A stretch of 32,000 bases of DNA, taken from the NCBI RefSeq assembly GCF_015694705.1, contig NZ_JADQDR010000005.1, forward strand, positions 327,447-359,446, read 5' to 3'. The translations under genes and the position numbers were made by a program. Below are positions 9,729-29,398 of the stretch, in pieces. The notes under the pieces were generated by a model that was not told the origin of the DNA, searched no databases, and saw nothing but the letters and a program-made list of their open reading frames with translations. This DNA comes from Pontibacter rufus (GTDB lineage Bacteria; Bacteroidota; Bacteroidia; Cytophagales; Hymenobacteraceae). The stretch's first letter is position 1. Each line of letters opens with the position of its first letter.

Positions 9729-9755
9729 TGTTTTGTTTTATACTGTATATTTTGC

Positions 9756-9788
9756 AAACCCGGTAGGTTTTAAAAACCTGCCGGGTTT
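9756..9788. repeat. intercistronic palindromic element, copy 2 (AAACCCGGTAGGTTTTAAAAACCTGCCGGGTTT)
   Basis: A stem of about 14 bp (AAACCCGG-T-AGGTT / AACCT-G-CCGGGTTT) lying between the GT4 stop (9825) and the asnB start (9728). A 10-nt direct repeat GTTTTATACT occurs at 9735-9744 and 9785-9794. Confidence 0.6.
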
Positions 9789-9824
9789 TATACTAGAGAG
9801 GTCATTTCTCTATTCAACCGCCCC

Positions 9825-10895: not shown

Positions 10896-11019
10896 GTAAG
10901 ATAATGTTCTGGTACTTCTTTATTGTTATACATTGGAGCTCTTCGCGGAAAAGCGCGCGCTGCGGCTCCTCTCCCATTTCCTGCTTACCCGATGGCCGTT
11001 TCAAGTTGCAGGGCGCCTG

Positions 11020-12402: not shown

Positions 12403-12472
12403 TTCAACTTTACTGAAGAGCTTATTTGTCTAAAAAAGTACTTTTATCCTACTAACGATATATGAACTTCAC

Positions 12473-13384: not shown

Positions 13385-13477
13385 AAAAGCGAAGACGTGG
13401 CAAAAATGTCAATTTCTTATACATTAACAGGTCATAAAAATTTTGAATCAATTATAGCTAAACACAAAAGGTTGCTA

Positions 13478-14608: not shown

Positions 14609-15874
14609 TTACTGAAATAATTGAATTAGTCTGTCGGTAGCTTTAGGATATGAGTGCTGTTCAATATCAGCTTCGATTGTAGCTGGGATGGAAGTTCGAT
14701 AGAATTCAAACAATGAGAGCAAGTCCTGCAAGCAATTATCAGGGCTAATAATCACACCATAGCTATTACTTCTAATAAATTCTGAAACTAAACCTTCTTT
14801 AGAAACTAAGATTATAGGTTTATGGAAAGGCAGCAATGCGATATTTTTTGTGGTTAAATTATCTTTCCAATTATCCCCAAGAAATGAAAGTAAGAAATTA
14901 GCGTTCGAAACTTCATTATAAAATTTTTCCTCAGATACTTTTTCTTTCAGCTTAACGCTATCTTCTATCCCTAAATCTTTAACAGCATTCGATAACATAT
15001 TATGCTGTCCGTATAAACTAACCTCAATTTTACTATAAAGAGCACTATCTCTATTCTTAATCTGCTTTAAAGCTTTCAACAAAGGAATAAAAGCATCAAC
15101 TACCGCAGTAGTCGTGATTGTCCCACCATATATAAATCTATATTTATCTTCTTTGGATTTAGAAACAAAACCAAAATTGTAGTCATCAGGATCATAATTA
15201 TGAGTAAAAAGCTGGAATTTTTTTTGATCAATATACTCGTAACGTTTTTTAAAATCCTCTAACATAGGTTTATATGTAAATAGAAGAAAGTTCGCATTTT
15301 CTGCAGTATATTTCTCCATCTGTTCTTCTACTCTTAGAACTCTCTTACTGATATTAGTTAATCCATACACTTTACCATCTAACCAAGAGTCTCTAAAATC
15401 ACATATGATATTTAATGAGGGGAACTCATTTTTAAGTAGCGTCACATAATAGTTAGATCGATGCGGCGGTCCAGTACTGATTACATTGGTAATTTTATAT
15501 TCTTTGATTAGTTTCCTAGAAATTGAAAGAAGATTATTCTTCCAAAATAATGCTTCATCTTGAACAATACCTTTACCGCAGATCTGTAAAATCAGACCTG
15601 CGACTTTTCTTATTAACCTGTTGAAGAGCGAGGAACCATTATTTAGTAATCTATGCGGATAACTATTATCAATGTAATATGTTTTAATGTTCTTAGACTT
15701 GATATCATTCGTCCAATTAGTACTTACTTTATCCTTTGAAGGAGGAGTTGCACCAACAACATGTACTTCATAGCCCTTCAATGCTAAGTACTTAGCGAAT
15801 TTAGCCCATCTCCTGCCACCGATTGCAGGATATGGAGGGAAGGCGTAAACGACAAGTAATAATGATTTACTCAT
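14609..15874 (-). CDS. probable GT-B glycosyltransferase (GT4-like N-domain, divergent C-domain)
   Basis: 421 aa. The N-terminus LLLVVYAFPPYPAIGGRRWAKFAKYLALKGYEVHVV resembles GT4 N-terminal domains. I see no clear EX7E motif. Confidence 0.6.
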   Translation of the reverse strand: MSKSLLLVVYAFPPYPAIGGRRWAKFAKYLALKGYEVHVVGATPPSKDKVSTNWTNDIKSKNIKTYYIDNSYPHRLLNNGSSLFNRLIRKVAGLILQICGKGIVQDEALFWKNNLLSISRKLIKEYKITNVISTGPPHRSNYYVTLLKNEFPSLNIICDFRDSWLDGKVYGLTNISKRVLRVEEQMEKYTAENANFLLFTYKPMLEDFKKRYEYIDQKKFQLFTHNYDPDDYNFGFVSKSKEDKYRFIYGGTITTTAVVDAFIPLLKALKQIKNRDSALYSKIEVSLYGQHNMLSNAVKDLGIEDSVKLKEKVSEEKFYNEVSNANFLLSFLGDNWKDNLTTKNIALLPFHKPIILVSKEGLVSEFIRSNSYGVIISPDNCLQDLLSLFEFYRTSIPATIEADIEQHSYPKATDRLIQLFQ

Positions 15875-16509
15875 TTTATTTCATCTGGCCTAGCTATCGC
15901 CGTAAGCACAAGTTCGTTTTTAGGAGTCACTATAAAATTACTTGGGATTGATTCTTTAATTAAACAATTAGCACCGATGACTACATTATCACCAATAATT
16001 ACATCCTTAAGAATTGTGACATTTGAACCTATCCAACAATTATTGCCAATTTTAACTGTCCCTATACTAAACCCTTGTTCTTTCACATTCATGCTTCGAT
16101 CTTTAAATCGATGATTGTGGTCATAGATTTTAACGCCTTCTCCTAGTATGGAATTATCTCCTATACAGACATCCCCCATGCAGTTAACGGAGCAACTATT
16201 GTTAAAGAATACATTATTGCCAATTAAGATGTGGCCAGCATCTACAAAAAAGTGGCAATCATTTCTCATGCTCACATTATCTCCAAATTCGATCAAGCTA
16301 TCTTGATGCAAAATGTTTAGGCTGAATCTTCTCCCGATAGATAAGCTGTTTTTAAACTTCAAATTCTTACTAAATAGCAACTTAAAGAACCCTAACTTCA
16401 ATCGTTTGGAAACTAAAAGTTTGAAATAATAAAACTTAATTATGAAGATTCTAATCATTAAAATAGGAATGGATCGGAAAATGCTTGATCTAATTTTGTG
16501 GTATTGCAA
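15871..16509 (-). CDS. hexapeptide-repeat (LbH) O-acetyltransferase
   Basis: LbH repeats IGNNVFFNNSCSV...IGDNSILGEGVKI...IGNNCWIGSNVTILKDVIIGDNVVIGANCLI. The track start at 16509 is a TTG and the first ATG is at 16458, so the 5' end is uncertain. ATGA overlap with the next gene (15871-15874). Confidence 0.8.
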   Translation of the reverse strand: MQYHKIRSSIFRSIPILMIRIFIIKFYYFKLLVSKRLKLGFFKLLFSKNLKFKNSLSIGRRFSLNILHQDSLIEFGDNVSMRNDCHFFVDAGHILIGNNVFFNNSCSVNCMGDVCIGDNSILGEGVKIYDHNHRFKDRSMNVKEQGFSIGTVKIGNNCWIGSNVTILKDVIIGDNVVIGANCLIKESIPSNFIVTPKNELVLTAIARPDEIK

Positions 16510-16582
16510 TTAATTAAAAGATAATGTAAGCTAAACACTTTGTGCAACATTAATTAGATTAGAAGATAAATCATCCAATATA

Positions 16583-17524
16583 CTACTTTTTAAGTTTACT
16601 CAGAATACTTCTTAGTTTTTGCACCTTTTTAAAGCCAAGCCACTTATAGGCTGTAATATAACTGGAAGTTGTAGCCGCTGAAACTCCTGGAACAAAATTA
16701 CTAGATAGAAACGCTTCGAATAATCTTATACTTTCCGCTGAATTATACTTGTAAAGCTCCCTTATCTTATCAAAAACTATTTGTGACACATCTTCAATGA
16801 CATCTAAATCAGTACCGCTTATTTTAAGATATTTTAAAATGTTGCCTCTAATCTCGGCATAACGGATAATGTTATCGACTGGAGTATCCTGTGATATAGA
16901 ACCTGAGTCGCGGACACGAATAATAGTTAATGGCTTAGAATCAAAGTAAACGATAGCACCATGTTGCAATAACCTGAACATAAGGTCTGTCTCTTGACTA
17001 CTTAGCAGATCTTCATTCCAGCCGTTTATTTGCAGCAATGCATCTTTCCTAAAAAAATTTGCGCAAGTGTTCCCCAATCCGTTCGATGCCAAGGCTATCC
17101 ACTTGTCCTTACATTTTACAATATTTTGGGTCTGTATCCCTCTTACACTTTGCTTTATGGAGCTACCGGCGATGAATACCAAGCTTGAATCAGTCTGAAT
17201 TAAGCTTAGCTGGTGCGATATTTTATTTGGCTTTAGTAAATCGTCTGCATCCAGAAACTGTATCCACTCTCCTTTAGCTAAACTTAAACCTTTGTTCCTG
17301 GCGGCGTTCGCTCCTTTTTTACTTTCAGAAGTAACTATAAGTCGGGGATACTTCTCTTTTAATGCAAGTAAAATATCGTAGGTATTGTCAGTAGAGTTAT
17401 TATCAATGCAGATAACTTCTATACTTGCGTAAACTTGCTCATATACACTTGCCAGGCATTCTTCAATGTAAGCTTGAACATTGTAGCAGGGGATTATAAT
17501 AGAAACAAGCAAAATATCAGTCAT
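16583..17524 (-). CDS. family 2 glycosyltransferase
   Basis: 313 aa. VSIIIPCYNVQAYIEECLASVYEQVYASIEVICIDNNSTDNT...QFLDADD. Confidence 0.85.
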   Translation of the reverse strand: MTDILLVSIIIPCYNVQAYIEECLASVYEQVYASIEVICIDNNSTDNTYDILLALKEKYPRLIVTSESKKGANAARNKGLSLAKGEWIQFLDADDLLKPNKISHQLSLIQTDSSLVFIAGSSIKQSVRGIQTQNIVKCKDKWIALASNGLGNTCANFFRKDALLQINGWNEDLLSSQETDLMFRLLQHGAIVYFDSKPLTIIRVRDSGSISQDTPVDNIIRYAEIRGNILKYLKISGTDLDVIEDVSQIVFDKIRELYKYNSAESIRLFEAFLSSNFVPGVSAATTSSYITAYKWLGFKKVQKLRSILSKLKK

Positions 17525-17534
17525 TGAATAAATA

Positions 17535-18323
17535 TTACATCTTGAATAAGTTACTGATCCTTTCTTTATACTTTCTTACTCTATTGCTATAAATTTTGGG
17601 CTGATATACTGGAAAGTCTTTTAAGAATTTGGCCCTAGCTTTCCTTAACTCGATTCTATACTTCTCAAAATCCTTGATAGTATCTACATCCCAATAACCA
17701 TAGGAATCTAGATAAGTAGAATAATCATTACCTCTTGAGGTAATGCTATTAGGGGAAAGAAGCCGCACATATAATGGATTATTTGCCTCCAGGTATACAA
17801 CCTTCTTATCCTTGTAGTATAAATGGTAGGTTTGAGAATGATCCTGATTAAATAGATCTCTGCCACTTTTTCCATAGGCAGAAATAGCATGATCATACTT
17901 ATGTATAATCGTGTTGGGAAACCAGTCTCTTTGCTGTTGACTAATTAAGTCAGAGGTGATTTCATAAAATGTGTGTTTAGATTCTGTAAGCGCATCAAAT
18001 GAATATTTGGAAGCATGCTGCAGAGCATTAGGCATTATCAAATCATCATCGTCTAAGCGTATAAGATATTCCGGCTTAATGTGGCTTTCTACATATTGTA
18101 GTCCAGACTTAATCTTTTCATACTTGGTTGCAGCTGCATTATCAACAAGGTAGATAAGATTGTCATTTTCTTCTTCCTCTTCATCAGTAATAATCAGCGC
18201 TTTCCAATCAGTAAAATTCTGATTCAGCAAAGCTTTTTTACAAAGTTGCCATAATGCATCTCTAACATCGCTGCGAAATTGTTTGGGAGTTCTTGGAATT
18301 AGAAACAGATATTTTGTATTCAT
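17535..18323 (-). CDS. hypothetical protein, possibly a divergent GT-A-fold glycosyltransferase
   Basis: 262-aa ORF matching the codon and AT bias of its neighbours. The only recognisable cue is a GT-A-like arrangement, ...KSGLQYVESHIKPEYLIRLDDDDLIMPNAL. I cannot assign a family. Confidence 0.45.
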   Translation of the reverse strand: MNTKYLFLIPRTPKQFRSDVRDALWQLCKKALLNQNFTDWKALIITDEEEEENDNLIYLVDNAAATKYEKIKSGLQYVESHIKPEYLIRLDDDDLIMPNALQHASKYSFDALTESKHTFYEITSDLISQQQRDWFPNTIIHKYDHAISAYGKSGRDLFNQDHSQTYHLYYKDKKVVYLEANNPLYVRLLSPNSITSRGNDYSTYLDSYGYWDVDTIKDFEKYRIELRKARAKFLKDFPVYQPKIYSNRVRKYKERISNLFKM

Positions 18324-18337
18324 AACTTTTACATTTC

Positions 18338-18362
18338 ATTAATACATATGAGATGTATTAAT
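18338..18362. repeat. perfect 10-bp inverted repeat (ATTAATACAT-atgag-ATGTATTAAT)
   Basis: The arms at 18338-18347 and 18353-18362 are exact reverse complements. The repeat lies 15 nt upstream of the ATG (18323) of the 262-aa gene, within a 246-bp AT-rich gap. Confidence 0.5.
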
Positions 18363-18569
18363 CCAATAATAAGAAGATTGTAAAGACAATTCTACTTAAT
18401 GAGCTTTTAGAGTCAGGCAGCAAAATGTCGTTGATGAATCTAATAAGGTTAATACTTACAATAAATTCCTCTTTCAATATTTTATCAACTTTTCTAAATT
18501 CTGAAGGTAGTTATAATAAATGTTATACTAGCTTTCAACGACTTTTATCCAAGAGATGAATTCATTATT

Positions 18570-19511
18570 TCACTTCTGAAAATTATTTAAGATTCTTGCT
18601 TTAAGCTCTGAAACGGAGAATTGTTGACAATAATAGAACGGCTGTATTGCTATTCTTAGTAGTACTATATGTGTCCTTGTATTAATTGATTCATAAAAGT
18701 TAGTCTTGCTCTTAAGCTTTATCCTGTATAGGTGTAATAGGGTAAGTGAAAACCCATATCTATGCTCTTTATCAAAATGTTTAATGTATTTTCTTAATTG
18801 GTAAATTCTTTTATTTAATCTATATGAATCTAGATCGGTTCTTTGACTTACTCCTCCTTCATGCTTGAGATGCGTACACCAGATGTTGTCATGAAATTTT
18901 ATTAAGCCATGCTGTGAAATCATAAGTTGAAGAGTATAATCACCACTATAAACTTTATAAAACCAGTCAGGCCACTTATCGAAGAGATCATTTCTGTACA
19001 CCATGGAAGCTGTTGGCATAAACCATCCATTTACTACATCTTTGTGGTTAAATGTAGTCCTTTGTTGTAGCTGCTCAAACCTTTCTCTAAACGTCTCGGT
19101 TTTATCCTCCTTATTCTGGTGTATTACCAAAGCATCATGAAAACTCATTACATACTCTGGGTTAGCCTCTAAAAAATCAATCTGCTCCTGGAGTTTACGC
19201 TCGTACGTCCAGAAATCATCTCCTTCGCAAAGAGCAATATATTTACCATGTGCAGCAGCGAAAGCAGTTCTCGTTACTATACCATCCCCAATAGATTTCT
19301 GATTAACGCTCTGATATATTGGTTTAATAATGTCAGGATATTCTTTTTCATATTCCTTTATTATTTCCTGGGTTCTATCTGTGGAAGCATCATCATGAAT
19401 TACTACTTCAAAAGGAAAATCAGTTTTCTGCATAATGAAACCATCCAATGCTTTCCTGATGAAAGGTTCGTGGTTATAAGTTAAAGAAACAATGCTCACT
19501 AATGGTTCCAT
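18570..19511 (-). CDS. family 2 glycosyltransferase
   Basis: 313 aa. VSIVSLTYNHEPFIRKALDGFIMQKTDFPFEVVIHDDASTDRT...CEGDD. Confidence 0.85.
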   Translation of the reverse strand: MEPLVSIVSLTYNHEPFIRKALDGFIMQKTDFPFEVVIHDDASTDRTQEIIKEYEKEYPDIIKPIYQSVNQKSIGDGIVTRTAFAAAHGKYIALCEGDDFWTYERKLQEQIDFLEANPEYVMSFHDALVIHQNKEDKTETFRERFEQLQQRTTFNHKDVVNGWFMPTASMVYRNDLFDKWPDWFYKVYSGDYTLQLMISQHGLIKFHDNIWCTHLKHEGGVSQRTDLDSYRLNKRIYQLRKYIKHFDKEHRYGFSLTLLHLYRIKLKSKTNFYESINTRTHIVLLRIAIQPFYYCQQFSVSELKARILNNFQK

Positions 19512-19543: not shown

Positions 19544-21328
19544 TTACTTAATTAACTCCTCATAAGCCCAAACTTTCTTCACTCTACCGCTTTCCAGCTC
19601 AACTATAGCATCGCATCGGTGCAAGGTCGTGAGCCGGTGGGCGATGATGATAATGGTCATGTCGTTGTCGGCGAGACGTGCCACGGCTTCGTTAATTTCA
19701 TTTTCGGTAGCCGAGTCCAGGGCGCTGGTGGCTTCGTCCATAATCAAAATGGTCGCGCCGTGGTACAAAGCGCGGGCAATGCCTACGCGCTGCCTTTGCC
19801 CGCCCGACAGCAGAGAGCCCCTGTCTCCTATTTTTGTTTGTAAGCCATCCGGCAGTTGCGCCACCACATCCGTTAAGCTGGCCAGCAGTATGGCACGGTC
19901 CAGTTTGGCAGCATCTATGTCTTCTTTAGCTAATCCAAACGCAATGTTCTCGGCCAGCGACGCATCCAGAATGTATACTTCCTGCTGCACATAGCCAATC
20001 CTGCTGCGCCAGCTTACCACATTTGTTTCATCCAGCCGGGTGTCGTCAATCCATATTTCCCCGGCAGTTGGTTTATAAAAACCAAGCAGCAGGTTTACGA
20101 GCGTGCTTTTCCCGGAGCCGGACCGGCCAATCAGGCCGATGGTGCTGTTCTTTTTAATGGTGAGGCTCACGTTGTCCAGAACAGCCTTTTCGTCCTTATA
20201 AGAAAAGGAAATATTTGAGAACCTGATGTGCGTGGTAAAATCAATCTTGCCGGTTGTATTTACGGCGGGCGCTTTGTTATCAGCCTTTATTTCATCCAGC
20301 ACCTTAAACGTATACTGGTAGCCTTTAACGCTTATAAGCGCAATCATGGAGCGGTTAATAGACGGAAGTATGCGGTAGGCAGCCAGGGCAAAAACAGACA
20401 GCAAACCGATAATATGGCTTTTGTCCTGCACGTGAAGCACCCCGTACAGGGCCACCAGGATAATGGCGGCCATCATACCGGTTTCTATCACTTTGGTGGG
20501 TGCCTGCTGCAGCACCTTGTCTAAAATTCTTAAATGCGACGTCCGGTTCAGCAGTCTTTTATGGTTTTCCAGGAAAAAAGCCTCCGAGCTGTTCATTTTC
20601 ACATCGATGTACCCGTAAGTAGACTGGAATAAATTAATACCCTGCTTTGGGCTTATTTCGTTCAGCTCCGTCTGGATGGCAAGCGACCTGTTTTTTACCG
20701 CCTTGTAGAACAGCGAAAATACAGGTATGATAAAGATTAACAACAGGGCTACCACCAGCGGATCATAGACCAATATCGTTACCAGTATTACCAGAATAAT
20801 AACGGCCTCGTTGATAAGTGTTATGGTGTTCAGCACAATGCCGTTGGTGAATTCGAGCGGTACTGAATTAATATTACGGATGATGTAATTGGGGTTGTTG
20901 TTCTTGTAAAACAAAAGCCCTTTCTGCTGGTAAATCGAAAAAAGGCGGCCCGAAAAATACTTGTAGAGGTTATAGGAAAAAGCGGCCTGGGTTTTATAAA
21001 TCCAGAGGCTTATCATGTTTTTTACCACAATAAAGGCCAGCACGGAGAGCGCCAGCACCACCAGAAAGCTGGTTTCGGAGGTAAAACCGAGCAGGTCGTA
21101 CAGCCAGCTGAAGGCTTTGTTGTTTGCGACAACGTTGTCCTGCAGCAGGATCATGATGATGGGCAGAATGGCCGCCAGCCCCAGAATGTCCAGAAAGGAA
21201 TTGAAAAGCAGGAGCGCCATCATTCCCAGTGCTTTGGGCTTGGTCTCAGCAGGCAACAAAGCAGATACTTTCCGGAGGGTGGTAAATATTATATTATCGC
21301 CAATCATGTTTATCAGCAAATCTTTCAA
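19544..21328 (-). CDS. fused TMD-NBD ABC exporter (MsbA/PglK-like half transporter)
   Basis: An N-terminal membrane domain of about six hydrophobic spans, then Walker A GRSGSGKST, signature LSGGQRQR and Walker B ILIMDEATSALD. The track start at 21328 is a TTG immediately after an in-frame TAG. The ATG at 21307 (MIGDNIIF...) is the likelier start. Confidence 0.9.
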   Translation of the reverse strand: MKDLLINMIGDNIIFTTLRKVSALLPAETKPKALGMMALLLFNSFLDILGLAAILPIIMILLQDNVVANNKAFSWLYDLLGFTSETSFLVVLALSVLAFIVVKNMISLWIYKTQAAFSYNLYKYFSGRLFSIYQQKGLLFYKNNNPNYIIRNINSVPLEFTNGIVLNTITLINEAVIILVILVTILVYDPLVVALLLIFIIPVFSLFYKAVKNRSLAIQTELNEISPKQGINLFQSTYGYIDVKMNSSEAFFLENHKRLLNRTSHLRILDKVLQQAPTKVIETGMMAAIILVALYGVLHVQDKSHIIGLLSVFALAAYRILPSINRSMIALISVKGYQYTFKVLDEIKADNKAPAVNTTGKIDFTTHIRFSNISFSYKDEKAVLDNVSLTIKKNSTIGLIGRSGSGKSTLVNLLLGFYKPTAGEIWIDDTRLDETNVVSWRSRIGYVQQEVYILDASLAENIAFGLAKEDIDAAKLDRAILLASLTDVVAQLPDGLQTKIGDRGSLLSGGQRQRVGIARALYHGATILIMDEATSALDSATENEINEAVARLADNDMTIIIIAHRLTTLHRCDAIVELESGRVKKVWAYEELIK

Positions 21329-21831: not shown

Positions 21832-22974
21832 TCACTTTCTTGTCTTCACCAGTCCGGGCAATTGTGCAATAAACTTATTTAAATGAGATTTATCAGCCAT
21901 TTTAATATACAGGGCATTATTGTATAGCATCTGCTCTTCACCAAGCTTCAAATCTCCGCTCTTCAATGCTTTTTCCAGATCTTTCTCTACAGAGTAAATA
22001 TGAAAACCCAGCTTTTTAAGCCATGGATAGGTGGGGTTATTCTCACTTAAAAAGATTTTAGCGCCATAAAACAATAACATGAATATATTACCCAAGGCCA
22101 TTTGCCTGTAAGAATTAAATACTGCTGTTGTAACAGTATTTAAAAGGTGCAGGTATTCCTGGTAAGGCATAAAATCTTCCAGTATATGGATATCAATAGA
22201 TAGCCCTTTCATGATCTGCATTATATTCTCCCGGTAAACCGAATTATAGCCATAGCCAAAAGGCACAATCACTTCGCCTTTGTATTGCAACTCCTCTAAC
22301 AGAATAAAGATATCCACATGGTTATTTCCTGGTGCAGATGAGTTTCCTACCAGGATCTTCGATTCGGCCTTGGCGGAATAATCCGGTTCGGGAAAAGTGG
22401 TAGTAACAGGAATCTGCAGAAATTCAGGAAGCGTAGTTACGTGGCTTTTTAAATAATTGTATTCGTCTTCATTATACCAGGCAAAGTAATCAACCGTAAG
22501 AATAGCTTTCTGCACCTCAGTTAAAAAGGAAAAATCTCCTTTAAAGAGCTGCTTGCCTAAATCCACCTTTTCTTTAAGCCTTTTTTTCAGAATTTCCTTA
22601 ATCTCAGGCGTACATATTTTTCTTGTTCTTTCTGTGAAATTATACTTGCTTAAGCTAGTCTGATTATAAATTTCTGTTCCGAAGAAATGCCAGATAATGA
22701 CAGGCTTTTTGGATAAGGCATTTATAAATAAAGCCTTTTCGTAAGTAAGGTTGTAAACAATTATAATATTAAGTTCTGATAAATTGCCGACTACATCTTT
22801 AAACCAATGCTTGGATTCGGGCTTTACCCATTTAGTTATGTCCGCATATTTTCCTGTATAGGTAAATTTTTTCTTTATATAGATAATCTGGTTCTCACAT
22901 CCATTGAAAAAATAGCGAGGAAGTACCAAATCAATAAATTTATCATCATCAATTACATGCAATATTTTAAACAT
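21832..22974 (-). CDS. WecF-like (GT56, 4-alpha-L-fucosyltransferase family) glycosyltransferase
   Basis: From my memory of E. coli WecF, ILVGNSSAPGNNHVDIFILLEEL...VIVPFGYGYN...YLHLLNTVTTAVFNSYRQMALGNIFMLLFYGAKIFLSENNPTYPWL parallels ILVGNSGDRSNEH...VVVPMGYP...[31 protein letters not shown]. The track start at 22995 is a TTG. I prefer the ATG at 22974 (MFKILHVIDDDKF). Confidence 0.65.
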   Translation of the reverse strand: MFKILHVIDDDKFIDLVLPRYFFNGCENQIIYIKKKFTYTGKYADITKWVKPESKHWFKDVVGNLSELNIIIVYNLTYEKALFINALSKKPVIIWHFFGTEIYNQTSLSKYNFTERTRKICTPEIKEILKKRLKEKVDLGKQLFKGDFSFLTEVQKAILTVDYFAWYNEDEYNYLKSHVTTLPEFLQIPVTTTFPEPDYSAKAESKILVGNSSAPGNNHVDIFILLEELQYKGEVIVPFGYGYNSVYRENIMQIMKGLSIDIHILEDFMPYQEYLHLLNTVTTAVFNSYRQMALGNIFMLLFYGAKIFLSENNPTYPWLKKLGFHIYSVEKDLEKALKSGDLKLGEEQMLYNNALYIKMADKSHLNKFIAQLPGLVKTRK

Positions 22975-23223
22975 GATATTAAATTTCAGAAGCAAACTGT
23001 AATTTTTACCTGTGGGCTATAGTGGGAGAGTGTTAACATCAGCAAGACCTGTATTATGCTGTTGAGCAGAATCAAAGATATGCTGATATCCTAGTTGCCA
23101 TCTGCTGATTCTTACATATTAACTGAAAGAGTACTCAACATGCTTTCCATGTAAATACTAATCAGGTCTAAGCCAGAGGCAGTACTTTGTAAACCTGCTT
23201 ACAAATTTTACCGGATATGTTCT

Positions 23224-23877
23224 TTACAGGGCTTTTCTTAAGAATTTAGCCGGATTGCCTGCCCATACTTCGAACTCACCAACATCTTTCAGCAAAACAC
23301 TCCCCATCGCCAGGGTAGAGTAATTCCCAATAGTCAGAAACTCCCTTATGGTGGCGTTTAAGCTTATGTGCACGCCCTCACCGATTTTCAAATAAGCGCC
23401 GACACATGATCCTGCGGCAATAAAAGTATGGGAGCCGATAATGTTATTATGCCCGATTGTAGCGCCCACCATCACACGGCAACATTTACCGAACTTAGTA
23501 CCAGGTGAAACAGAAACATTAGGCATGATAACGCAGCCAGGTGCCAGCTCAACATTTGGTGCCACGTATGCGGTCGGATGAACAAAGGTTGCTAACCGCT
23601 CCTCAGGAATTAACAATGAGTCAAAAAGCTCGATTCTCTCTTTTTGCCCGTCTATCTTGTAAATCGTGTTAATGAAATAATATCCTTCCTTAATAAACTT
23701 TTTGACATCCTTTAACCCGCCCCGGACTTTATAGCCTTCTATCTCGTCGCAGTCGTCGCGATCATTAATATAACCGTCGAACTCATATGCTGTGTAGCCC
23801 CGCATGTTTGCATCAATCATTGCATTCGCAATCACTGATGCATTTCCCAAGCCGCCAAATATCAATACCTTCTTCAT
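23224..23877 (-). CDS. PglD/NeuD/PerB-type nucleotide-sugar N-acyltransferase (Rossmann-like N-domain plus LbH)
   Basis: 217 aa. N-terminus MKKVLIFGGLGNASVIANAMI followed by LbH repeats (VELAPGCVIMPNVSVSPGTKFGKCCRVMVGATIGHNNIIGSHTFIAAGSCVGAYLKIGEGVHISLNATI). ATGA overlap with the upstream gene. Confidence 0.8.
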   Translation of the reverse strand: MKKVLIFGGLGNASVIANAMIDANMRGYTAYEFDGYINDRDDCDEIEGYKVRGGLKDVKKFIKEGYYFINTIYKIDGQKERIELFDSLLIPEERLATFVHPTAYVAPNVELAPGCVIMPNVSVSPGTKFGKCCRVMVGATIGHNNIIGSHTFIAAGSCVGAYLKIGEGVHISLNATIREFLTIGNYSTLAMGSVLLKDVGEFEVWAGNPAKFLRKAL

Positions 23878-24575
23878 AGTAATTCATATTGCTTTAAATA
23901 CTCCGCGATATTTTCTTTAGAGTTGAACATCAGCACATCCAGTATAGAAAGCCATGGTACAAAATCATTATTAAACTGCTGGTAAACAACCGGCAAGGAT
24001 TTAAGAAAGTTTAGGTTTATACCCTGCTGTGCAAAGTCTTCTTTGGTATACAACTCTCTTCCTCCTATGGCATTGATATAATCAGATCCGCCCGTTTTTT
24101 TTACTATGTCAATCAGCCGGTCTCCCTTTTTTAAATCCACGTTCTGAAAATCACATTGCGAGCTCCTTTTCAACTCCGTTTTTATGTTAAGATAATCACA
24201 GATGCTTGTGATACCCGCGGTAGCTAAATCGGCGATGCTTTCCGGCCTTTTGTTTAAAACAGCATGAAGCAAGGTATTAATCTCTTCAAAAAAAGGAGCT
24301 TTCCTGTAAGCGGCCTCTATTGTTTTGCAAAACCCGGAAATATCTTTGCTCGACCAGTCTACCCCTATTTCATTAATTAATTTGCTCTGGCTTGCCTTAA
24401 TGCACGGAATAGTAAACAGGTGCTCTTTACCATTCAGTAAAATTCTATTTCTGTTTATCCACCCTTTCTTTATATACTGTACATCATCATAAATCACGAA
24501 CAAATCTACGGCATCAATCAATTGAAAATAACCTATGTAAGGAAATACGTATGGCTGCATTATCGCAACTTTCAT
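23874..24575 (-). CDS. WbqC-like family protein (function unknown)
   Basis: 233 aa. The opening MKVAIMQPYVFPYIGYFQLIDAVDLFVIYDDVQYIKKGWINRNRIL is the characteristic N-terminus of WbqC-like proteins of O-antigen loci. ATGA overlaps on both sides. Confidence 0.75.
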   Translation of the reverse strand: MKVAIMQPYVFPYIGYFQLIDAVDLFVIYDDVQYIKKGWINRNRILLNGKEHLFTIPCIKASQSKLINEIGVDWSSKDISGFCKTIEAAYRKAPFFEEINTLLHAVLNKRPESIADLATAGITSICDYLNIKTELKRSSQCDFQNVDLKKGDRLIDIVKKTGGSDYINAIGGRELYTKEDFAQQGINLNFLKSLPVVYQQFNNDFVPWLSILDVLMFNSKENIAEYLKQYELL

Positions 24576-25459
24576 CTACTTCTTTTATCTAACTGTTCCT
24601 GTTTTTTTAAAACCTTCTTCGCTTTGGCAATAATTGGCGGCCCCACAAACTTACCTTTCATGATGGCCACACCTTTGCCCTCCAGGCTAGCTTCTTCAGC
24701 CAGCCTGAGCATTTCTTTAGCATCGTTCAGCTCCTGCAGAGTAGGGGAATAGTATTGATGAACCAGCGGAATTTCTGCTGGATTCAGTAAAAGCATGCCT
24801 TCAAAACCAAGCTTAAGAGATAAAATAAGGTTTTTCTCTAAATCCTCCAGATCATGCACGTTTACATGTACAGTATCTATCGGAATAATATTGTGAGCAC
24901 GTGCCGCCATGGCAATCAATGCTCTTGGCGTAAACAGGCTTATATGCTCTGCATCATGAATTCCCTGTAAATCCGTTACAAAATCTTCTGAGCCGTAAGC
25001 AATGGCTATAACCCTTTTGGAGGCGGAACAAATCTCCTGCACATTAAGTACGGCAGAAGCTGTTTCAATTAATGGTATGATCTTATAAGTTCCGACGGGG
25101 ATCTTTTTCTCATACTCTATTGTTTCTAAAAGCTTGCAAAAGAAGTAGATATCTTCGCCCCTTTTTGCTTTTGGATACACAAAGCCATTTACCCCGGGAA
25201 TAGTTAACTGGTAGACGTCCTTCAATAACTCGCCGCTCTCCCGATCGTTTACCCTTGGGAAAATCACCCGGTTTTCAAACAAGCCTTCACTAATGTACTT
25301 TTTTATTTTATCTCTTGCTACCTGCTTATTTGATAAGGGCTGAACAGAATCTTCAATATCAAAAAGTAAAATATCTGCATCGATTTTCGCAGCACTCTGT
25401 AAAAGCTTATCATTGTGACCTGGCACAAACATTAAGCTACGCATCAGATATTCGCTCAT
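24572..25459 (-). CDS. CitE/HpcH-HpaI-family protein (citryl-/malyl-/citramalyl-CoA lyase-like), paralogue 2
   Basis: 295 aa. RSLMFVPGHNDKLLQSAAKIDADILLFDIEDSV...IPLIETASAV...AYGSEDFVTDL is the classical CitE-like beta-subunit pattern, including the acidic metal-ligand positions. Confidence 0.8.
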   Translation of the reverse strand: MSEYLMRSLMFVPGHNDKLLQSAAKIDADILLFDIEDSVQPLSNKQVARDKIKKYISEGLFENRVIFPRVNDRESGELLKDVYQLTIPGVNGFVYPKAKRGEDIYFFCKLLETIEYEKKIPVGTYKIIPLIETASAVLNVQEICSASKRVIAIAYGSEDFVTDLQGIHDAEHISLFTPRALIAMAARAHNIIPIDTVHVNVHDLEDLEKNLILSLKLGFEGMLLLNPAEIPLVHQYYSPTLQELNDAKEMLRLAEEASLEGKGVAIMKGKFVGPPIIAKAKKVLKKQEQLDKRSR

Positions 25460-25461
25460 AC

Positions 25462-25920
25462 TTAATTGCGTTTTGGTATTAGCACCTTGCGTCTGAATCT
25501 TAATACAGGCTTCTTATCCTGGTTGTAGGCGGTTGTTTCTACATAGATAATACCCCTATCAGCTTTGGTCGCTGACGCCCACTTGTCCAGTACTTTGGTT
25601 TCAGCATAAATCGTATCGTTTATAAAAACGGGCAACAGATGCTGCACTTGCTCGTATTCAAGGTTTGCAATAGCCTTGCCGCTGATATCTGGCACGGTCA
25701 TGCCCACCGTTAAGCTAAACACAAGCGTTCCGACAACTAGTATCTTCCCATGTTGCTTATCTGAAGCATAATCCGCATTCGTATGCACCGGATGATGGTT
25801 CATGGTTAACAAGCTGAACAAATTATTGTCGCTCTCAAATATTGTTTTAGAAAGCACGTGCTGAATCAGTTCGCCAACTTTAAAATCCTCATAATAATTT
25901 CCCAGATTACTTACGTGCAT
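25462..25920 (-). CDS. single-domain MaoC-like (hot-dog fold) acyl-CoA hydratase/dehydratase
   Basis: 152 aa. YEDFKVGELIQH...TIFESDNNLFSLLTMNHHPVHTNADYAS...GIIYVETTAYNQDKKPVLRFRRKVLIPK. It keeps the hydratase-2 motif scaffold and overlaps the upstream gene by 14 nt. Confidence 0.85.
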   Translation of the reverse strand: MHVSNLGNYYEDFKVGELIQHVLSKTIFESDNNLFSLLTMNHHPVHTNADYASDKQHGKILVVGTLVFSLTVGMTVPDISGKAIANLEYEQVQHLLPVFINDTIYAETKVLDKWASATKADRGIIYVETTAYNQDKKPVLRFRRKVLIPKRN

Positions 25921-26740
25921 TTCCTTTACCTTTTTCAGTTATAATCTTAGCCCGTTTAATGTGCGGGCGTTCAATCACTTCATTTCCAATCACTATCGGA
26001 GAAAACTCTAGGTTTTCTCCGGCTTTGCTATAAGCATCCATCACAACCGCAGCCCACTGTACTTCTTCCTCGCTGAAATAATCAAAGGTATTAAAAATTT
26101 CTAATTGCCATGGATGAATCAGGAACTTGGCATCATAGCCTTTTTCAAAGCCGTCAGCCAGTTCCTCTTTAAACAACGTTTGATCCTGTAGCTCCATAGA
26201 AGCAATATCGATACAATCTACTTCTGCCGCTTTTGCTGAATACAGGAGCTTCTGCCTGGGGTACTCCAGATTTTTCAAGGTATGCTTTGCTCCAAGTATG
26301 GAGACCAGGTCATGACTGCCTAATCCTACCCCTTTAATTTGTCCGTTCGCATTAAACAACATACTGTCTAAATCAATGAGCATTCTGGGATGCTCCACAA
26401 GCACAATAAACTGATGATTAGAATTTATATCCAGTCCTGTTACCAGCGAATTAAACTCTTCGGCAGAAAGCAGCTTAGGTAAAACAATTTTGCTAAAGCC
26501 TTTTTCTAATAATAATTTTAGAACTCCGCCATCAATCTGCTGTTCAAAGCTTTCTCTCAGGGGCACTCTTAACCAAAATTCATTCACATTGGTAGAACGG
26601 AGAAGCGTGTTTATGATTTCAGCCCTTTCAGAGCCTTTTACTGCATCCTCCAAGTCAATAATAATTTCATCAACCCCTTGATTTCGGATAAATTCAAGGT
26701 TGCTATATCTTGTTCCGGGTATAAAGAAATATGAACGCAT
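25907..26740 (-). CDS. CitE/HpcH-HpaI-family protein, divergent paralogue 1
   Basis: 277 aa. MRSYFFIPGTRYSNLEFIRNQGVDEIIIDLEDAV...FIVLVEHPRML...GLGSHDLVSIL...AKFLIHPWQ has the same fold signature as the other paralogue but is more divergent. Confidence 0.7.
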   Translation of the reverse strand: MRSYFFIPGTRYSNLEFIRNQGVDEIIIDLEDAVKGSERAEIINTLLRSTNVNEFWLRVPLRESFEQQIDGGVLKLLLEKGFSKIVLPKLLSAEEFNSLVTGLDINSNHQFIVLVEHPRMLIDLDSMLFNANGQIKGVGLGSHDLVSILGAKHTLKNLEYPRQKLLYSAKAAEVDCIDIASMELQDQTLFKEELADGFEKGYDAKFLIHPWQLEIFNTFDYFSEEEVQWAAVVMDAYSKAGENLEFSPIVIGNEVIERPHIKRAKIITEKGKGNARK

Positions 26741-26749
26741 AAGTTTCTG

Positions 26750-27832
26750 CTAGTAATTTTGGTAACGTAAAACCAGGCGGGCAATTAAATGCACATCCTC
26801 AGGCTTTAAGGAGTGATAAAGCGGAAAGCAAAGGACGCGCTGCACAATATCCTCGCATACAGGCAAAGGCGACGTTTTAGTAACATAAGGCAGTTCAGCC
26901 AGGGAAGGATAGAAATACCTTCTGCAAAAAATGTTGTTAGCTGCTAGTCTCTTATAGCACTCCTGCATGAGCTCAGCAGATTCGAAGACAAAGGGGTAGT
27001 AAGCAAAATTATACATTGTGCCTTCCTGGATTCTGGGTCTGAAACCATTTACGTGGCGCATGTACTGGTCATAATTTGCGCTCAGCTCTTTACGCCTGTC
27101 CAGAATTGCCGTGATATGGTTTAGGTTTACGAGGCCCATGGCCGCATGGAATTCAGAATTCTTTCCGTTAATCCCTATTTCTGCAAATGCTTCCGGACCA
27201 CTATGCCCGAAGTTGCGCATGTACGCCATCTTCTTGAGCAAATCAGGGTTGTTTGTAAAAACGGCTCCTCCTTCTATGGTATGAAACAGCTTTGTTGCAT
27301 GAAAACTGGTGGTACTGATGTCTCCGTAATCAAATATGGAACGCCCTTTATACTTTGTGCCGAAACAATGTGCTGCATCATAAATAACTTTAAGTCCATA
27401 CTTGTCGGCAATGGCCTGGATGGCATCTATGTCGCAGGGGTTTCCATAAACGTGCGTTGCCAGTATGGCAGATGTGCGCTCCGTAATGGCCGCTTCTATC
27501 TTTGTGGGATCGAGATTTAACGTTTCCGGATCAATATCGACGAAAACCGGCATGCAGCCTTCCCATACTATACTGCTGGTGGTAGCAACATAAGAAAACG
27601 GTGTCGTGATGATTTCCCCTTCCAACCCGAGCGCCTTGATGGCTATTTGCAGGGCTATGGTACCATTAGAAAGGTATAGCAGGTGATTAACCCCCAGGTA
27701 TTGCTTTAGCTTGAGCTCCAGATCATTTACTATCGGTCCATTATTGGTGAGCCACTGGCGCTCCCATATATCCTTTATGTAAGACTGGTATTCTTCAACA
27801 GGTGGCAGAAAAGGCTTGGTGACAGGTATCAT
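26750..27832 (-). CDS. DegT/DnrJ/EryC1/StrS-family PLP-dependent nucleotide-sugar aminotransferase
   Basis: 360 aa. MIPVTKPFLPP...NGTIALQIAIKAL...THVYGNPCDIDAI...DAAHCFG...TSFHATKLFHTIEGGAV (PLP lysine). ATGA overlap with wzx (27829-27832). Confidence 0.9.
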   Translation of the reverse strand: MIPVTKPFLPPVEEYQSYIKDIWERQWLTNNGPIVNDLELKLKQYLGVNHLLYLSNGTIALQIAIKALGLEGEIITTPFSYVATTSSIVWEGCMPVFVDIDPETLNLDPTKIEAAITERTSAILATHVYGNPCDIDAIQAIADKYGLKVIYDAAHCFGTKYKGRSIFDYGDISTTSFHATKLFHTIEGGAVFTNNPDLLKKMAYMRNFGHSGPEAFAEIGINGKNSEFHAAMGLVNLNHITAILDRRKELSANYDQYMRHVNGFRPRIQEGTMYNFAYYPFVFESAELMQECYKRLAANNIFCRRYFYPSLAELPYVTKTSPLPVCEDIVQRVLCFPLYHSLKPEDVHLIARLVLRYQNY

Positions 27833-29274
27833 CTTTTTAGAATTAATCGTCTGAAATCAATAATAGCAGGCATTTTTATCAGCTGGCTTATTCCCAGGTA
27901 TAGTATAAAATACAGGCACCCCGTTATACCCACCCGCATGAAATCGATCATGTGCAGCATCTGCAATAAAACGTATTTGTCTATTAGCCAGGAAAGTACC
28001 CCAACCAATGCAGCTAAAATAATCATTGGCGCAACATTCTTTACCTGCTCTGTCATGGGGTAGCCAATCATTTTACCACTATACCACGAGTTTATAAAAT
28101 AAGCTACAAACGAGATTATCACCTGCAGGTATAACAAGCCGTAAATTCCAAAAGGAATGGCTACAATGATACCGACTGTAATAAAAGCCTTTTTAATGAT
28201 CTCTAATTTGAGAAACAACTCACTTCTGCCTTTTACTTTCAGGATGTTTAAATTATACGAATTTAACGGATATAGTATACCTGCCGCGCATAATGTCTGA
28301 AAATACGGGACAGCAGGCACCCATTTTTCGGTTAAAAGAAAGCGTATCAGAGGCTCGGCAATTACACCAAGCAATATCATGGTAGGGGCAATCCAAAAGA
28401 GCACCTGCTGCATTAATTTCTTATAGGCCATTTTCAGCTTTTCATTTTCATGCTGAATGGACGAAAACATGGGGTATGTTACTTTATTCAGCGCAGTGGA
28501 AATGTTCTGCACGGGTAGCTGCTGCAGGCTCTTCGCTCTTGTATAATAACCCAGATAGGCAACCGGGAAGAACTTGCCGATTATCAGGTTGTATATATTA
28601 TTATAAATTGTATCCAGCAGCCCCGAAAGGGTCAGTTTATATCCAAAGCTAAAGTGGTATTTAAAACGCTCCTTGTCGAACAGGAAGTTCGGGCGCCAGC
28701 CGCTGTAAATCCAGTGCTGCACAGCGGATAAAAAAGATTGAAACAGATTCATCCAGACCAGGCTCCATACACCATAATCCAGGTAAGCCAGTATAACACC
28801 TAGGATTCCTCCCCCGATTACAGAAGGTATCTGTATTTTCATCTGGGTCTTAAAATCCATTTCTTTGGTTAACCGGGTGCTCTGTACCCCTACAAAAGCG
28901 CTGATTATAAAAGATATGGTATATATCCGGATAATAGGTGTTAAGATCTCCTGGTCATAAAATGAAGCGATAAAAGGAGCCGAAAAGAAAAGAATCACAT
29001 AAATGAAGATGCTGCCTATTATATTGATAAAGAAAACGGTAGAATAGTCTTTCTGATCAGCATTGGGCGTTCTAATCAGGGAGGAGGACAAGCCACTATC
29101 CATTAAAGAGCTTCCTATTGCCATAAAGACAGAAAGCATGCCTATTAAACCATAATCTGCCGGAAGCAGAACCCTGGCCATTATAATGGATACACCAAAA
29201 TTAATCAGTTGCACACTAAACCGCTGACTGAAAGTCCAGAACAGACCGGAAATTGTTTGCTTTTGTAGGCTCAC
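27829..29274 (-). CDS. wzx: Wzx-type (MOP/PST superfamily) oligosaccharide flippase
   Basis: 481-aa polytopic membrane protein. LQKQTISGLFWTFSQRFSVQLINFGVSIIMARVLLPADYGLIGM is the typical PST N-terminus. The start codon is GTG (complement of cac at 29272-29274). Confidence 0.85.
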   Translation of the reverse strand: MSLQKQTISGLFWTFSQRFSVQLINFGVSIIMARVLLPADYGLIGMLSVFMAIGSSLMDSGLSSSLIRTPNADQKDYSTVFFINIIGSIFIYVILFFSAPFIASFYDQEILTPIIRIYTISFIISAFVGVQSTRLTKEMDFKTQMKIQIPSVIGGGILGVILAYLDYGVWSLVWMNLFQSFLSAVQHWIYSGWRPNFLFDKERFKYHFSFGYKLTLSGLLDTIYNNIYNLIIGKFFPVAYLGYYTRAKSLQQLPVQNISTALNKVTYPMFSSIQHENEKLKMAYKKLMQQVLFWIAPTMILLGVIAEPLIRFLLTEKWVPAVPYFQTLCAAGILYPLNSYNLNILKVKGRSELFLKLEIIKKAFITVGIIVAIPFGIYGLLYLQVIISFVAYFINSWYSGKMIGYPMTEQVKNVAPMIILAALVGVLSWLIDKYVLLQMLHMIDFMRVGITGCLYFILYLGISQLIKMPAIIDFRRLILKR

Positions 29275-29339: not shown

Positions 29340-29342
29340 AAT

Positions 29343-29380
29343 AAAAGACCGGGTTATAGCTTTCCATAACCCGGTCTTTT
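29343..29380 (-). terminator. rho-independent terminator after gmd
   Basis: A 15-bp perfect stem, AAAAGACCGGGTTAT (29343-29357) with ATAACCCGGTCTTTT (29366-29380), around an 8-nt loop. It starts 19 nt after the gmd stop and on the minus strand runs into TTTTATTTATATTT. Confidence 0.75.
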
Positions 29381-29398
29381 ATTTATATTTATTTGGAT

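Follow-up and report, generated by a model that had tools for sequence, protein, structure and literature searches.

A cassette of amino-sugar and acyl-CoA genes in Pontibacter rufus

We examined a 32,000-nucleotide stretch of DNA from Pontibacter rufus (positions 327,447 to 359,446 of contig NZ_JADQDR010000005.1; we will call this whole stretch the window), in which genes for two CitE-like proteins and a MaoC-type hydratase lie within a run of amino-sugar genes. Seven consecutive genes are on the minus strand. The first encodes a wzx-type flippase (27829-29274; Pfam Polysacc_synt_3, E = 1.2e-94; its matches to NCBIfam models for MOP flippases are below the cut-off). It is followed by a DegT/DesI/VioA-like sugar aminotransferase of the pyridoxal phosphate type (26750-27832; PF01041, 1.3e-95) and by the three genes that we will call the trio: CitE-like 1 (CitE1; 25907-26740; HpcH_HpaI, 9e-19), a single-domain (hot-dog) MaoC hydratase (25462-25920; MaoC_dehydratas, 1.4e-16, and MC_hydratase, 3.9e-16), and CitE-like 2 (CitE2; 24572-25459; HpcH_HpaI, 1.5e-38). 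The last two genes encode a WbqC-family protein (23874-24575; PF08889, 3.5e-74) and an N-acyltransferase of the NeuD/PglD/VioB type, with a left-handed beta-helix (LbH; 23224-23877; Hexapep, 8e-15). A WecF-like glycosyltransferase of family GT56 is encoded 228 nt downstream of LbH, also on the minus strand (21832-22995; Glyco_transf_56, 1.4e-15). In NCBI, entries from Pontibacter sp. 172403-2 match CitE1 and WbqC at 100% identity.

The genes are closely packed. There are ATGA overlaps between wzx and DegT, CitE2 and WbqC, and WbqC and LbH; CitE1 and MaoC overlap by 14 nt; and the gaps between DegT and CitE1 and between MaoC and CitE2 are just 9 nt and 2 nt. A first-pass annotation, made from the sequence alone, had described a single co-directional and tightly spaced unit. 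Its coordinates and junctions for the seven genes all agree with the sequence and with the list of open reading frames (ORFs), and a Pfam profile search returned the family that it had named for every protein. The motifs that it quoted are also present (VLVEHP and GSHDL in CitE1; IPLIETA and GSEDF in CitE2).

The trio is a portable block that is linked to N-acyltransferases

A search with CitE1 found 141 relatives, mostly from Bacteroidota. We scanned one genome per species, which gave 80 loci; mapped the six window proteins onto each locus; and clustered all of the ORFs. CitE1, MaoC, and CitE2 are encoded in the same order and on one strand in 55 distinct loci, and the 14-nt overlap of CitE1 and MaoC recurs along with this order. 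Because the same arrangement, down to the overlap, recurs in 55 independent loci, it is not due to chance. An LbH acyltransferase adjoins the trio in 54 of the 55 loci, and 49 of the 55 also have a DegT aminotransferase close by. Besides the trio and LbH, the clustering of ORFs found no gene family that is common to all of the trio loci. MaoC is 61-79% identical across the 55 loci.

The trio is found in several lineages of Bacteroidota, such as Flavobacterium, Algoriphagus, Phocaeicola, Saprospiraceae, and Taibaiella. It is also present in two metagenome-assembled genomes (MAGs) of Leptospira and in Candidatus Formimonas, where the gene order is MaoC-CitE2-CitE1-LbH. Among the carriers that can be cultured are Flavobacterium soli DSM 19725, Tenacibaculum discolor DSM 18842, Maribacter antarcticus DSM 21422, Gelidibacter sediminis DSM 28135, Algoriphagus marincola DSM 16067, and Myroides marinus DSM 23048. 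The rest of the 80 loci are mainly from haloarchaea and have ordinary single CitE genes; we used these as an outgroup.

The trio occurs in three kinds of sugar pathways. In 21 loci with a context of the pseudaminic acid (Pse) type, genes for a PseB-like dehydratase, DegT, and a CMP-transferase are upstream of the trio. The trio and LbH occupy the position of PseH, between PseF-like and PseG-like genes, and a NeuB/PseI-like gene follows. In 14-17 loci, the context suits a dTDP-4-amino-4,6-dideoxyhexose (of the Qui4N/Fuc4N type): DegT resembles that of the window, and RmlA is often present. Finally, in 10 loci with a context of the UDP-linked bacillosamine/QuiNAc4N type, genes for a PglC-like phosphoglycosyltransferase and a PglE-like DegT come after LbH.

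We asked how these genes co-evolve by comparing pairwise identities over 41 loci. For LbH, the identity is 0.59 within a sugar context and 0.34 between contexts. The members of the trio show little such difference (within and between contexts, 0.39 and 0.36 for CitE1, 0.70 and 0.69 for MaoC, and 0.65 and 0.64 for CitE2). Furthermore, the identities of the trio's members are correlated with each other (Spearman correlations of 0.54-0.70, with 0.64 for CitE1 and CitE2), while correlations between the trio and LbH are just 0.01-0.09. So the trio co-evolves as a unit and LbH tracks the type of sugar. If the trio makes one product regardless of the sugar, and each pathway brings its own transferase, then this pattern would result. 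We also considered that CitE1 might act on the sugar nucleotide, but rejected this idea, as the identity of CitE1 does not track the context. The link between the trio and an N-acyltransferase, which was first suggested from the window by itself, is borne out by this neighborhood search: the adjacency is kept in all but one locus, across three sugar contexts and several lineages of LbH. The region has two layers, namely a common amino-sugar unit (DegT, WbqC, LbH, Wzx, and a glycosyltransferase) and the portable trio.

We noticed two other features of these loci. In two bacillosamine-type loci (L001:13475-15518 and L003:13435-15497), two conserved proteins, each with about 340-350 amino acids, are encoded after LbH and the PglC-like gene. 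The 334-353 amino acid proteins beside the module had no matches in Pfam except for one weak match to a FemAB-like GNAT. Also, L031 (a "Bacteroidetes" MAG) and L033 (a MAG labeled as Vulcanococcus limneticus) agree with each other in their gene coordinates and, nearly exactly, in their identities to the window's proteins, so one of these bins is probably contaminated.

A second gene order

In two other loci, we found the order MaoC-CitEa-CitEb-LbH, which we will call type II (and the order in the window, type I). In Flexithrix dorotheae (L090:4677-7609), the genes are PseB-like, DegT, a CMP-transferase, a 343-amino-acid protein of unassigned function, MaoC, CitEa, CitEb, LbH, and NeuB. In Lentimonas sp. 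(L091:4715-7614), they are RmlA, DegT, MaoC, CitEa, CitEb, LbH, Wzx, and GT56, so the partner genes are as in the window. The type II MaoC is 62% identical to the window's, CitEb is 38-40% identical to CitE2, and CitEa is 27-31% identical to CitE1. A CitEb-type query (P0268, which is 36% identical to CitE2) had 1,808 relatives with E ≤ 1e-20. By this measure, the CitEb family is much larger than the type I set; we read its cassette context in two loci.

The CitE-like proteins lack the lid aspartate

Both CitE-like proteins contain an HpcH_HpaI domain, with scores well above Pfam's cut-off of 25 (68.1 bits for CitE1 and 132.8 bits for CitE2). Both are far below the cut-offs of more specific models: against RipC_Ccl (NF038242; cut-off 375), CitE1 scores 81 bits and CitE2 scores 113 bits, and against citE (TIGR01588; cut-off 443), they score 59 and 194 bits. 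The families for the alpha and gamma subunits of citrate lyase are absent from the Pfam matches of the window's other ORFs. Among proteins in the PDB, the best match for CitE1 is RipC (3qll, 6e-12), and CitE2 matches 1sgj (3e-28) and the malyl-CoA lyase 5ugr (4e-25). More broadly, both match CitE-like proteins, malyl-CoA lyases, CLYBL, RipC, and the beta chains of acyl-CoA lyases, and the alignments extend through the C-terminal lid hairpin. (The entries 4l7z and 4l80, which are titled "HpcH/HpaI aldolase," are the malyl-CoA lyase of Chloroflexus; PMC3832036.) As supposed in the first-pass annotation, the two proteins group with lyases of CoA esters and not with the HpcH/HpaI aldolases of free acids.

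The active-site residues whose roles are described for this superfamily (PMC3832036 and PMC6689899) are the D-x-E-D motif, an arginine, and the Glu/Asp ligands of Mg2+. In 56 sequences of each paralogue, these are invariant or nearly so. CitE1 has conserved D29/E31/D32, R58, E116, D144, and H209-P210-Q212; CitE2 has invariant D34/E36/D37, R69, E132, and E158-D159. Most CitE2 sequences have L-N-P-x-E in place of I-H-P-x-Q. CitE1 is the fast-evolving paralogue and CitE2 is the highly conserved one.

In characterized relatives, an aspartate in the lid (Asp299 of MCLR or Asp318 of MCLC) closes over the catalytic site in the adjacent subunit, and this aspartate is proposed to shuttle a proton at the alpha carbon of the acyl-CoA (PMC3832036). 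It is conserved across the superfamily and in malate synthases, except that the clade of malyl-CoA thioesterases has glutamate instead (PMC3832036). We located this position with HMMER alignments to 1sgj, 5ugr, CLYBL, 4l9y, 3qll, and 8khl. In CitE1, the residue is Glu257, in the motif V-I-E-R-P-H along with His260, and its counterpart in 1sgj, in CLYBL, and in the acyl-CoA lyase beta chain 8khl is the lid Asp. Both Glu and His are present in 56/56 and in 120/120 sequences. In CitE2, the residue is Gly273, in the motif G-K-F-V-G-P-P (55/55), and CitE2 belongs to a large clade with [G/S/A]-P-P in the lid. In the two type II loci, CitEa has serine (S-P-P) and CitEb has glycine (G-P-P), so these lids carry no carboxylate; 118 of the 119 relatives of CitEb that were listed also have the glycine. 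The outgroup CitE proteins have the expected aspartate, in the motif G-E-M-I-D-x-P, in 24 of 25 cases.

It had been argued that since the metal ligands are kept, both CitE-like proteins could be catalytic. The ligands are indeed kept, but the argument is incomplete, as the lid Asp is replaced by Glu257 or Gly273. Because of these replacements in both paralogues, the chemistry of malyl- or citramalyl-CoA lyase cannot be assumed, and the lid residues suggest that the CitE reaction of the trio is probably not a plain version of either. Of the two paralogues, only CitE1 has a glutamate in place of the lid aspartate, as Mcl2 does.

We speculate, with considerable doubt, that CitE-like proteins with [Gly/Ser]-Pro-Pro in the lid might perform a new class of reaction in which the enolate of the thioester forms by decarboxylation instead of by proton abstraction. 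One possibility is a decarboxylative aldol reaction between malonyl-CoA and an oxo acid, with the substrate's carboxylate taking the place of the lid Asp. Another possibility is that a CoA ester of the glutaconyl type undergoes vinylogous decarboxylation, similar to that of ECH2. If enolates do form this way, then the cassette would be an analogue, at the level of CoA esters, of the condensing enzyme, dehydratase, and decarboxylase for beta-branching of polyketides, and a hydroxyacyl or branched acyl group would be fed to amino sugars in many genomes.

A locus in Amycolatopsis pithecellobii (L074:6783-10795) has three CitE-like genes in a row, behind a gene for a Glu/Leu/Phe/Val dehydrogenase. 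Two of the three have glycine in the lid ("KLVGTP" and "KVIGRP") and one has the canonical aspartate ("SMVDAV"). Examining this triple-CitE locus gave no clue as to its function.

MaoC is related to hydratases of carboxylated enoyl-CoAs

The MaoC domain of the window's hydratase scores 60.6 bits (Pfam's cut-off is 27). Its best match in NCBIfam is RipB/Ich, at 129.5 bits (cut-off 340), and its best matches in the PDB are to both halves of 4e3e (a MaoC domain protein dehydratase, 8e-30) and to 8hgn (a beta-methylmalyl-CoA dehydratase, 8e-28). In the motif T-M-N-H-H-P-V-H, it has asparagine where the generic hydratase 1q6w has aspartate; asparagine is also the residue in the C-terminal half of both 4e3e and 8hgn. 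These similarities seem to place MaoC with the hydratases of carboxylated enoyl-CoAs, such as mesaconyl-CoA or itaconyl-CoA. We view this kinship as the best hint that the trio's pathway might run via a dicarboxylic CoA ester.

The sugar and its acyltransferase

DegT matches PF01041 over its full length (321 bits, residues 13-351). Its best match in NCBIfam is DesI, the dTDP-4-dehydro-6-deoxyglucose aminotransferase (259 bits), and it is below the cut-offs of all of the specific equivalogs (DesI, WecE, and PseC). It is 49% identical to the DegT of the Lentimonas cassette. GT56 is similar to the NCBIfam models for TDP-Fuc4NAc:lipid II transferases (2e-26, below the cut-off), and Lentimonas has a GT56 gene after its type II cassette as well. 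By homology, DegT probably makes an NDP-4-amino-4,6-dideoxyhexose, and GT56 probably transfers the N-acylated form of this sugar. Because of the DesI-like best match, the WecF-like GT56, and the presence of RmlA in related loci, the sugar is probably linked to dTDP.

The LbH protein scores 144.5 bits against TIGR03570, which is just under the cut-off of 160.8, and matches the structure of VioB (7txp, 4e-17). Its His143 aligns with the catalytic His125 of PglD, whose sequence and numbering we verified against 2vhe and 3bss, and this histidine is invariant in 53/53 LbH proteins that are linked to the trio. The preceding residue is glycine in all 53 of these, serine in relatives from loci that lack the trio, and Glu124 in PglD. 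Within the window's subgroup of LbH, the motif of the trio-linked proteins is G-H-[N/D]-N, and an aromatic residue takes the position of PglD's Asn144, while the trio-less proteins have S-H-N-C and Asn. The window's LbH has the trio-type residues G142 and N145 and the aromatic residue (which is restricted to one subgroup of LbH). Across the signature positions, it shares 9 with the trio-linked sequences and 10 with the trio-less ones. These residues would fit with a retuned acyl pocket in the trio-linked LbH proteins. We also tried to read from the LbH residues whether the acyl group is acidic or neutral, and rejected this approach: only the glycine is universal, and we found no extra basic residue that is conserved.

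WbqC is part of a common amino-sugar unit

WbqC matches PF08889 across almost all of the profile (249.8 bits, positions 1-216 of 218). This family has at least 8,000 relatives, and it is found in just 6 of the 55 trio loci. Conversely, four genomes of Hymenobacteraceae (Pontibacter toksunensis, Rufibacter sediminis, and two species of Hymenobacter) have a five-gene island, DegT-Wzx-WbqC-LbH-GT2, without CitE or MaoC (L085:3303-8331, L087:4201-9305, L088:4191-9310, and L089:4304-9334). In these islands, WbqC overlaps the start of LbH, as in the window, and the window's DegT is 60% identical to that of a Hymenobacter island. Since the trio-less islands keep DegT, WbqC, and LbH, the trio looks like an add-on that was inserted into a pre-existing unit. 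The first-pass annotation had placed WbqC in the same unit as the trio; the adjacency is real, but given its rarity in trio loci and its presence in trio-less islands, WbqC is not part of the trio's system; it belongs to the unit of DegT, WbqC, and LbH, which is far commoner without the trio. The trio-less islands stand outside of any large polysaccharide locus, and they may be a housekeeping unit for glycosylation with an amino sugar.

Searches of the PDB with the WbqC sequence or with a profile found no link to solved structures. In an AlphaFold2 model of WbqC (predicted local distance difference test [pLDDT] of 91, predicted template modeling score [pTM] of 0.90), Foldseek found a single match with E < 1e-3, which was BshC (4wbd; E = 1.4e-4, query TM-score [TMq] of 0.48). 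Weaker structural neighbors included class-I aminoacyl-tRNA synthetases and the adenylating folds of ThiF/E1. The substrate of BshC is GlcN-malate, whose amine receives a cysteine, but this reaction has never been reconstituted (PMC5790435). WbqC, encoded beside DegT and an N-acyltransferase, could perform this kind of step, in which an amino acid is attached to an amino sugar's amine. On the other hand, WbqC is only 11% identical to BshC, which has 540 amino acids and includes a coiled-coil domain. As a lead from this model, WbqC might add an amino acid or an organic acid to the amine of the sugar, and LbH might then acylate it. The N-acetylglycyl-Qui4N of E. coli O121, which we take to be the source of WbqC's name, would fit this idea.

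Proposed role of the trio

We propose that the trio supplies the acyl donor for the neighboring LbH, and we consider this general model to be fairly probable. From the gene order, the families, their conservation and modular co-evolution, and the residue patterns, we infer the following steps. DegT would aminate an NDP-4-keto-6-deoxyhexose to a 4-amino sugar. From central metabolites, the trio would build a single acyl-CoA, short and other than acetyl-CoA, by way of a carboxylated beta-hydroxyacyl- or enoyl-CoA intermediate that is handled by MaoC. LbH would move the acyl group onto the 4-amino group of the sugar or, as a variant in the window, onto an amino-acid or organic-acid spacer that WbqC would have added first. 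GT56 would add the acylated sugar to a lipid-linked repeat, and Wzx would flip it across the membrane.

The acyl group cannot be read from the sequence. Candidates are malyl, citramalyl, or beta-methylmalyl groups; their dehydrated forms; the 3-hydroxy-3-methylglutaryl (HMG) or methylglutaconyl types; or, after decarboxylation, 3-hydroxybutanoyl or 3-hydroxy-3-methylbutanoyl groups. As background, N-4-malyl amino sugars are known from Pseudoalteromonas rubra, Vibrio vulnificus, and Shewanella algae (PMC3210612).

Several observations weigh against our proposal. CitE1 and CitE2 have Glu and Gly, respectively, instead of the superfamily's lid aspartate, and neither of the type II paralogues has a carboxylate there. 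Furthermore, the Glu of CitE1 is the signature of the malyl-CoA thioesterases, and a thioesterase would yield a free acid, which LbH could not use. In the trio-linked LbH proteins, we found no conserved extra basic residue that might bind a carboxylate on the acyl group, and apart from the glycine before the catalytic histidine, no residue is common to all of them. Also, a trio-less LbH from Hymenobacter, which presumably uses acetyl-CoA, shares 70% identity with the window's LbH, so a change in acyl specificity is conjectural. Finally, we found no biochemical or glycan-structure report for any organism that carries the trio.

The glutamate in CitE1's lid raises the possibility that the trio makes a free organic acid. 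A CitE-like protein would join an acyl-CoA to an oxo acid by condensation, MaoC would dehydrate or hydrate the product, and CitE1 would be an Mcl2-like thioesterase. The acid would then be attached by an ATP-dependent ligase (WbqC in the window, and another enzyme elsewhere) or would be used in an O-linked form, and LbH would only acetylate. In its favor, the glutamate, which is otherwise found only in the thioesterase clade (PMC3832036), is invariant in both sets of CitE1 sequences. This reading would also fit the resemblance of WbqC's model to BshC, an enzyme that attaches cysteine to an amino sugar's amine, and the window LbH's similarity to a trio-less LbH. However, 49 of the 55 trio loci lack WbqC, and the clustering of ORFs gave no other family that could take its place in all of them. 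Instead, the near-invariant partner of the trio is LbH, which uses thioesters. And since the type II counterpart of CitE1 has Ser-Pro-Pro, a Glu-dependent thioesterase is not the general logic of these cassettes. We consider the free-acid explanation to be unlikely. Another alternative is that the trio is a metabolic island, such as for the utilization of itaconate or another dicarboxylate, that is hitch-hiking in glycan loci, and that the sugar is simply N-acetylated. Pairs of MaoC and CitE are typical of the catabolism of itaconate or leucine (RipB and RipC are the best NCBIfam matches; PMC6689899), and again, the LbH of the window has a close relative in a trio-less locus. But this seems very improbable. 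In the loci whose genes we listed, there was no CoA transferase or CoA ligase beside the trio, and an N-acyltransferase adjoins the trio in nearly all of the type I loci and in both type II loci. Moreover, the loci that can be classified fall in three different sugar pathways, and in the Pse-type loci, the trio and LbH sit between the PseF-like and PseG-like genes. A hitch-hiking catabolic island also would not account for both CitE-like proteins deviating at the lid Asp, which 24 of the 25 CitEs of the non-glycan outgroup keep.

We also considered that CitE1 and CitE2 might form one hetero-oligomer with a single type of working active site, in which the Glu lid of CitE1 completes the barrel of CitE2. 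The trio would then be a lyase and a hydratase, akin to RipC/RipB or Ccl/Ich in reverse, and would provide LbH with citramalyl-, mesaconyl-, or itaconyl-CoA (or malyl- or fumaryl-CoA). This is close to what the first-pass annotation had proposed. The lid domains of CitE-like trimers do work in trans (PMC3832036); in type I cassettes, CitE1 has a lid carboxylate and CitE2 does not; and the two paralogues co-vary and are encoded together in 55/55 loci. The Amycolatopsis locus also pairs Gly-lid and Asp-lid paralogues, and the nearest relatives of MaoC and CitE1 are RipB/Ich and RipC, respectively. Against this, both type II paralogues lack a lid carboxylate, so complementation of one lid by another is not general. 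Also, both CitE1 and CitE2 have the full set of metal-binding and arginine residues, unlike a purely structural subunit. So a shared active site seems doubtful to us.

The surrounding polysaccharide locus

The cassette lies within one large polysaccharide locus, at roughly 3.6-31.6 kb of the window. This locus includes gmd, fcl, glycosyltransferases of families GT2, GT4, and GT56, a Wzy_C protein, and further LbH acyltransferases, as well as an AsnB-like amidotransferase, a UDP-sugar dehydrogenase, and an ATP-binding cassette (ABC) exporter. Between gmd and wzx is a palindromic hairpin with a perfect 20-bp stem (29340-29383), with a terminator score on either strand. No other terminator-like site between 21500 and 30700 comes near it in strength. 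The remaining sites in this region are weak, with stems of 5-12 bp; there are 15 sites, a number close to that in shuffled sequences (8.9 ± 3.0). The hairpin is likely to be a bidirectional terminator at the upstream end of the unit, and the pattern of hairpins fits a single transcription unit from wzx to LbH.

The G+C content of the locus is a mosaic, ranging from 0.31 to 0.585. The genes of the cassette have 37-46% G+C, versus around 50% for the flanking housekeeping genes, which fits with horizontal acquisition of the cassette. Elsewhere in the locus, G+C is 0.55-0.585 at 8-11 kb of the window (the AsnB-like amidotransferase and a GT4) and 0.31-0.36 at 12-19 kb (GT2, GT4, and LbH genes, and a 421-amino-acid ORF without a match in Pfam). 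The mosaic across 8001-19000 suggests that the locus was assembled from several sources. The ABC exporter (19544-21328; 594 amino acids, with ABC_tran at residues 384-535) is a full-length fused protein, in a locus that also bears Wzx and Wzy_C.

Relationship to known systems

A close precedent is the anthrose operon of Bacillus anthracis (antABCD), in which an enoyl-CoA hydratase supplies a non-acetyl hydroxyacyl-CoA, beside a DegT-type aminotransferase and an LbH N-acyltransferase. The latter two enzymes act on dTDP-4-amino-4,6-dideoxyglucose. As in that operon, enzymes that modify acyl-CoA are found beside an aminotransferase and an N-acyltransferase in the window, in the 55 type I loci, and in the 2 type II loci. 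AntA belongs to the crotonase family and is not a MaoC; the anthrose operon has no CitE-like proteins; its enoyl-CoA comes from the catabolism of leucine and is not built by the operon; and AntD is in a different subgroup of LbH. Other enzymes for acyl donors in glycan loci include the tetronate genes of Vibrio cholerae O1 and the vio genes of Pseudomonas syringae.

Two other kinds of systems combine a CitE-like protein with a MaoC-type hydratase. RipB/RipC (Ich/Ccl) and Rv2498c of Mycobacterium tuberculosis have an adjacent MaoC-type (R)-hydratase and CitE-like CoA-ester lyase, and the Mg ligands Glu112 and Asp138 of Rv2498c, along with its Arg64 (PMC6689899), are kept in both of the window's CitE-like proteins. 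But these are catabolic systems outside of glycan loci, with an accompanying CoA transferase and a single CitE that has the lid Asp, and the window's proteins are far under the cut-offs for the RipB/RipC equivalogs (81-130 bits instead of 340-375). In Rhodobacter sphaeroides, Mcl1, Mch, and Mcl2 comprise two CitE-like proteins (a lyase with Asp and a thioesterase with Glu) and a MaoC-type mesaconyl-CoA hydratase (PMC3832036). However, these enzymes belong to central carbon assimilation (the ethylmalonyl-CoA pathway), Mch is a double hot-dog protein, and CitE2 has Gly instead of Asp. As for LbH, it shares with PglD, VioB, and PerB the fold, the catalytic histidine, and a predicted action on the 4-amino group of NDP-4-amino-4,6-dideoxyhexoses, but those characterized enzymes use acetyl-CoA, and the trio-linked proteins have Gly before the catalytic histidine.

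Our full-text searches of a literature library returned no paper on the cassette, in agreement with the first-pass annotation, which was aware of no described pathway of this composition. A paper about the O-antigen cluster of Tenacibaculum maritimum mentions no genes for a lyase, hydratase, or aldolase. None of CitE1, MaoC, and CitE2 has a specific model in NCBIfam, and their source annotations are generic ("CoA ester lyase" or "aldolase/citrate lyase family protein"). The association of two non-canonical CitE-like proteins and MaoC with a NeuD/PglD-type N-acyltransferase appears to be new, as do the absence of the lid Asp, the wide distribution of the association, and its portability among three kinds of sugar pathways. 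Dedicated enzymes for acyl donors in glycan loci, and MaoC and CitE pairs in catabolism, were already known.

The N-acyl groups on 4-amino-4,6-dideoxyhexoses and on nonulosonic acids shape the antigenicity of O-antigens, of capsules, and of the glycans on flagellin and pilin, and for few of the non-acetyl groups is the source of the acyl donor known. The CitE-like proteins without the lid Asp of their superfamily represent unexplored enzymology. WbqC, a very common family whose function is not known, gains a hypothesis, as a BshC-like enzyme that might add acyl or aminoacyl groups to amino sugars. And if the trio makes one defined acyl-CoA, then biochemical work on one example would be enough to annotate all of these loci, and this decoration of glycans would become predictable from sequence.

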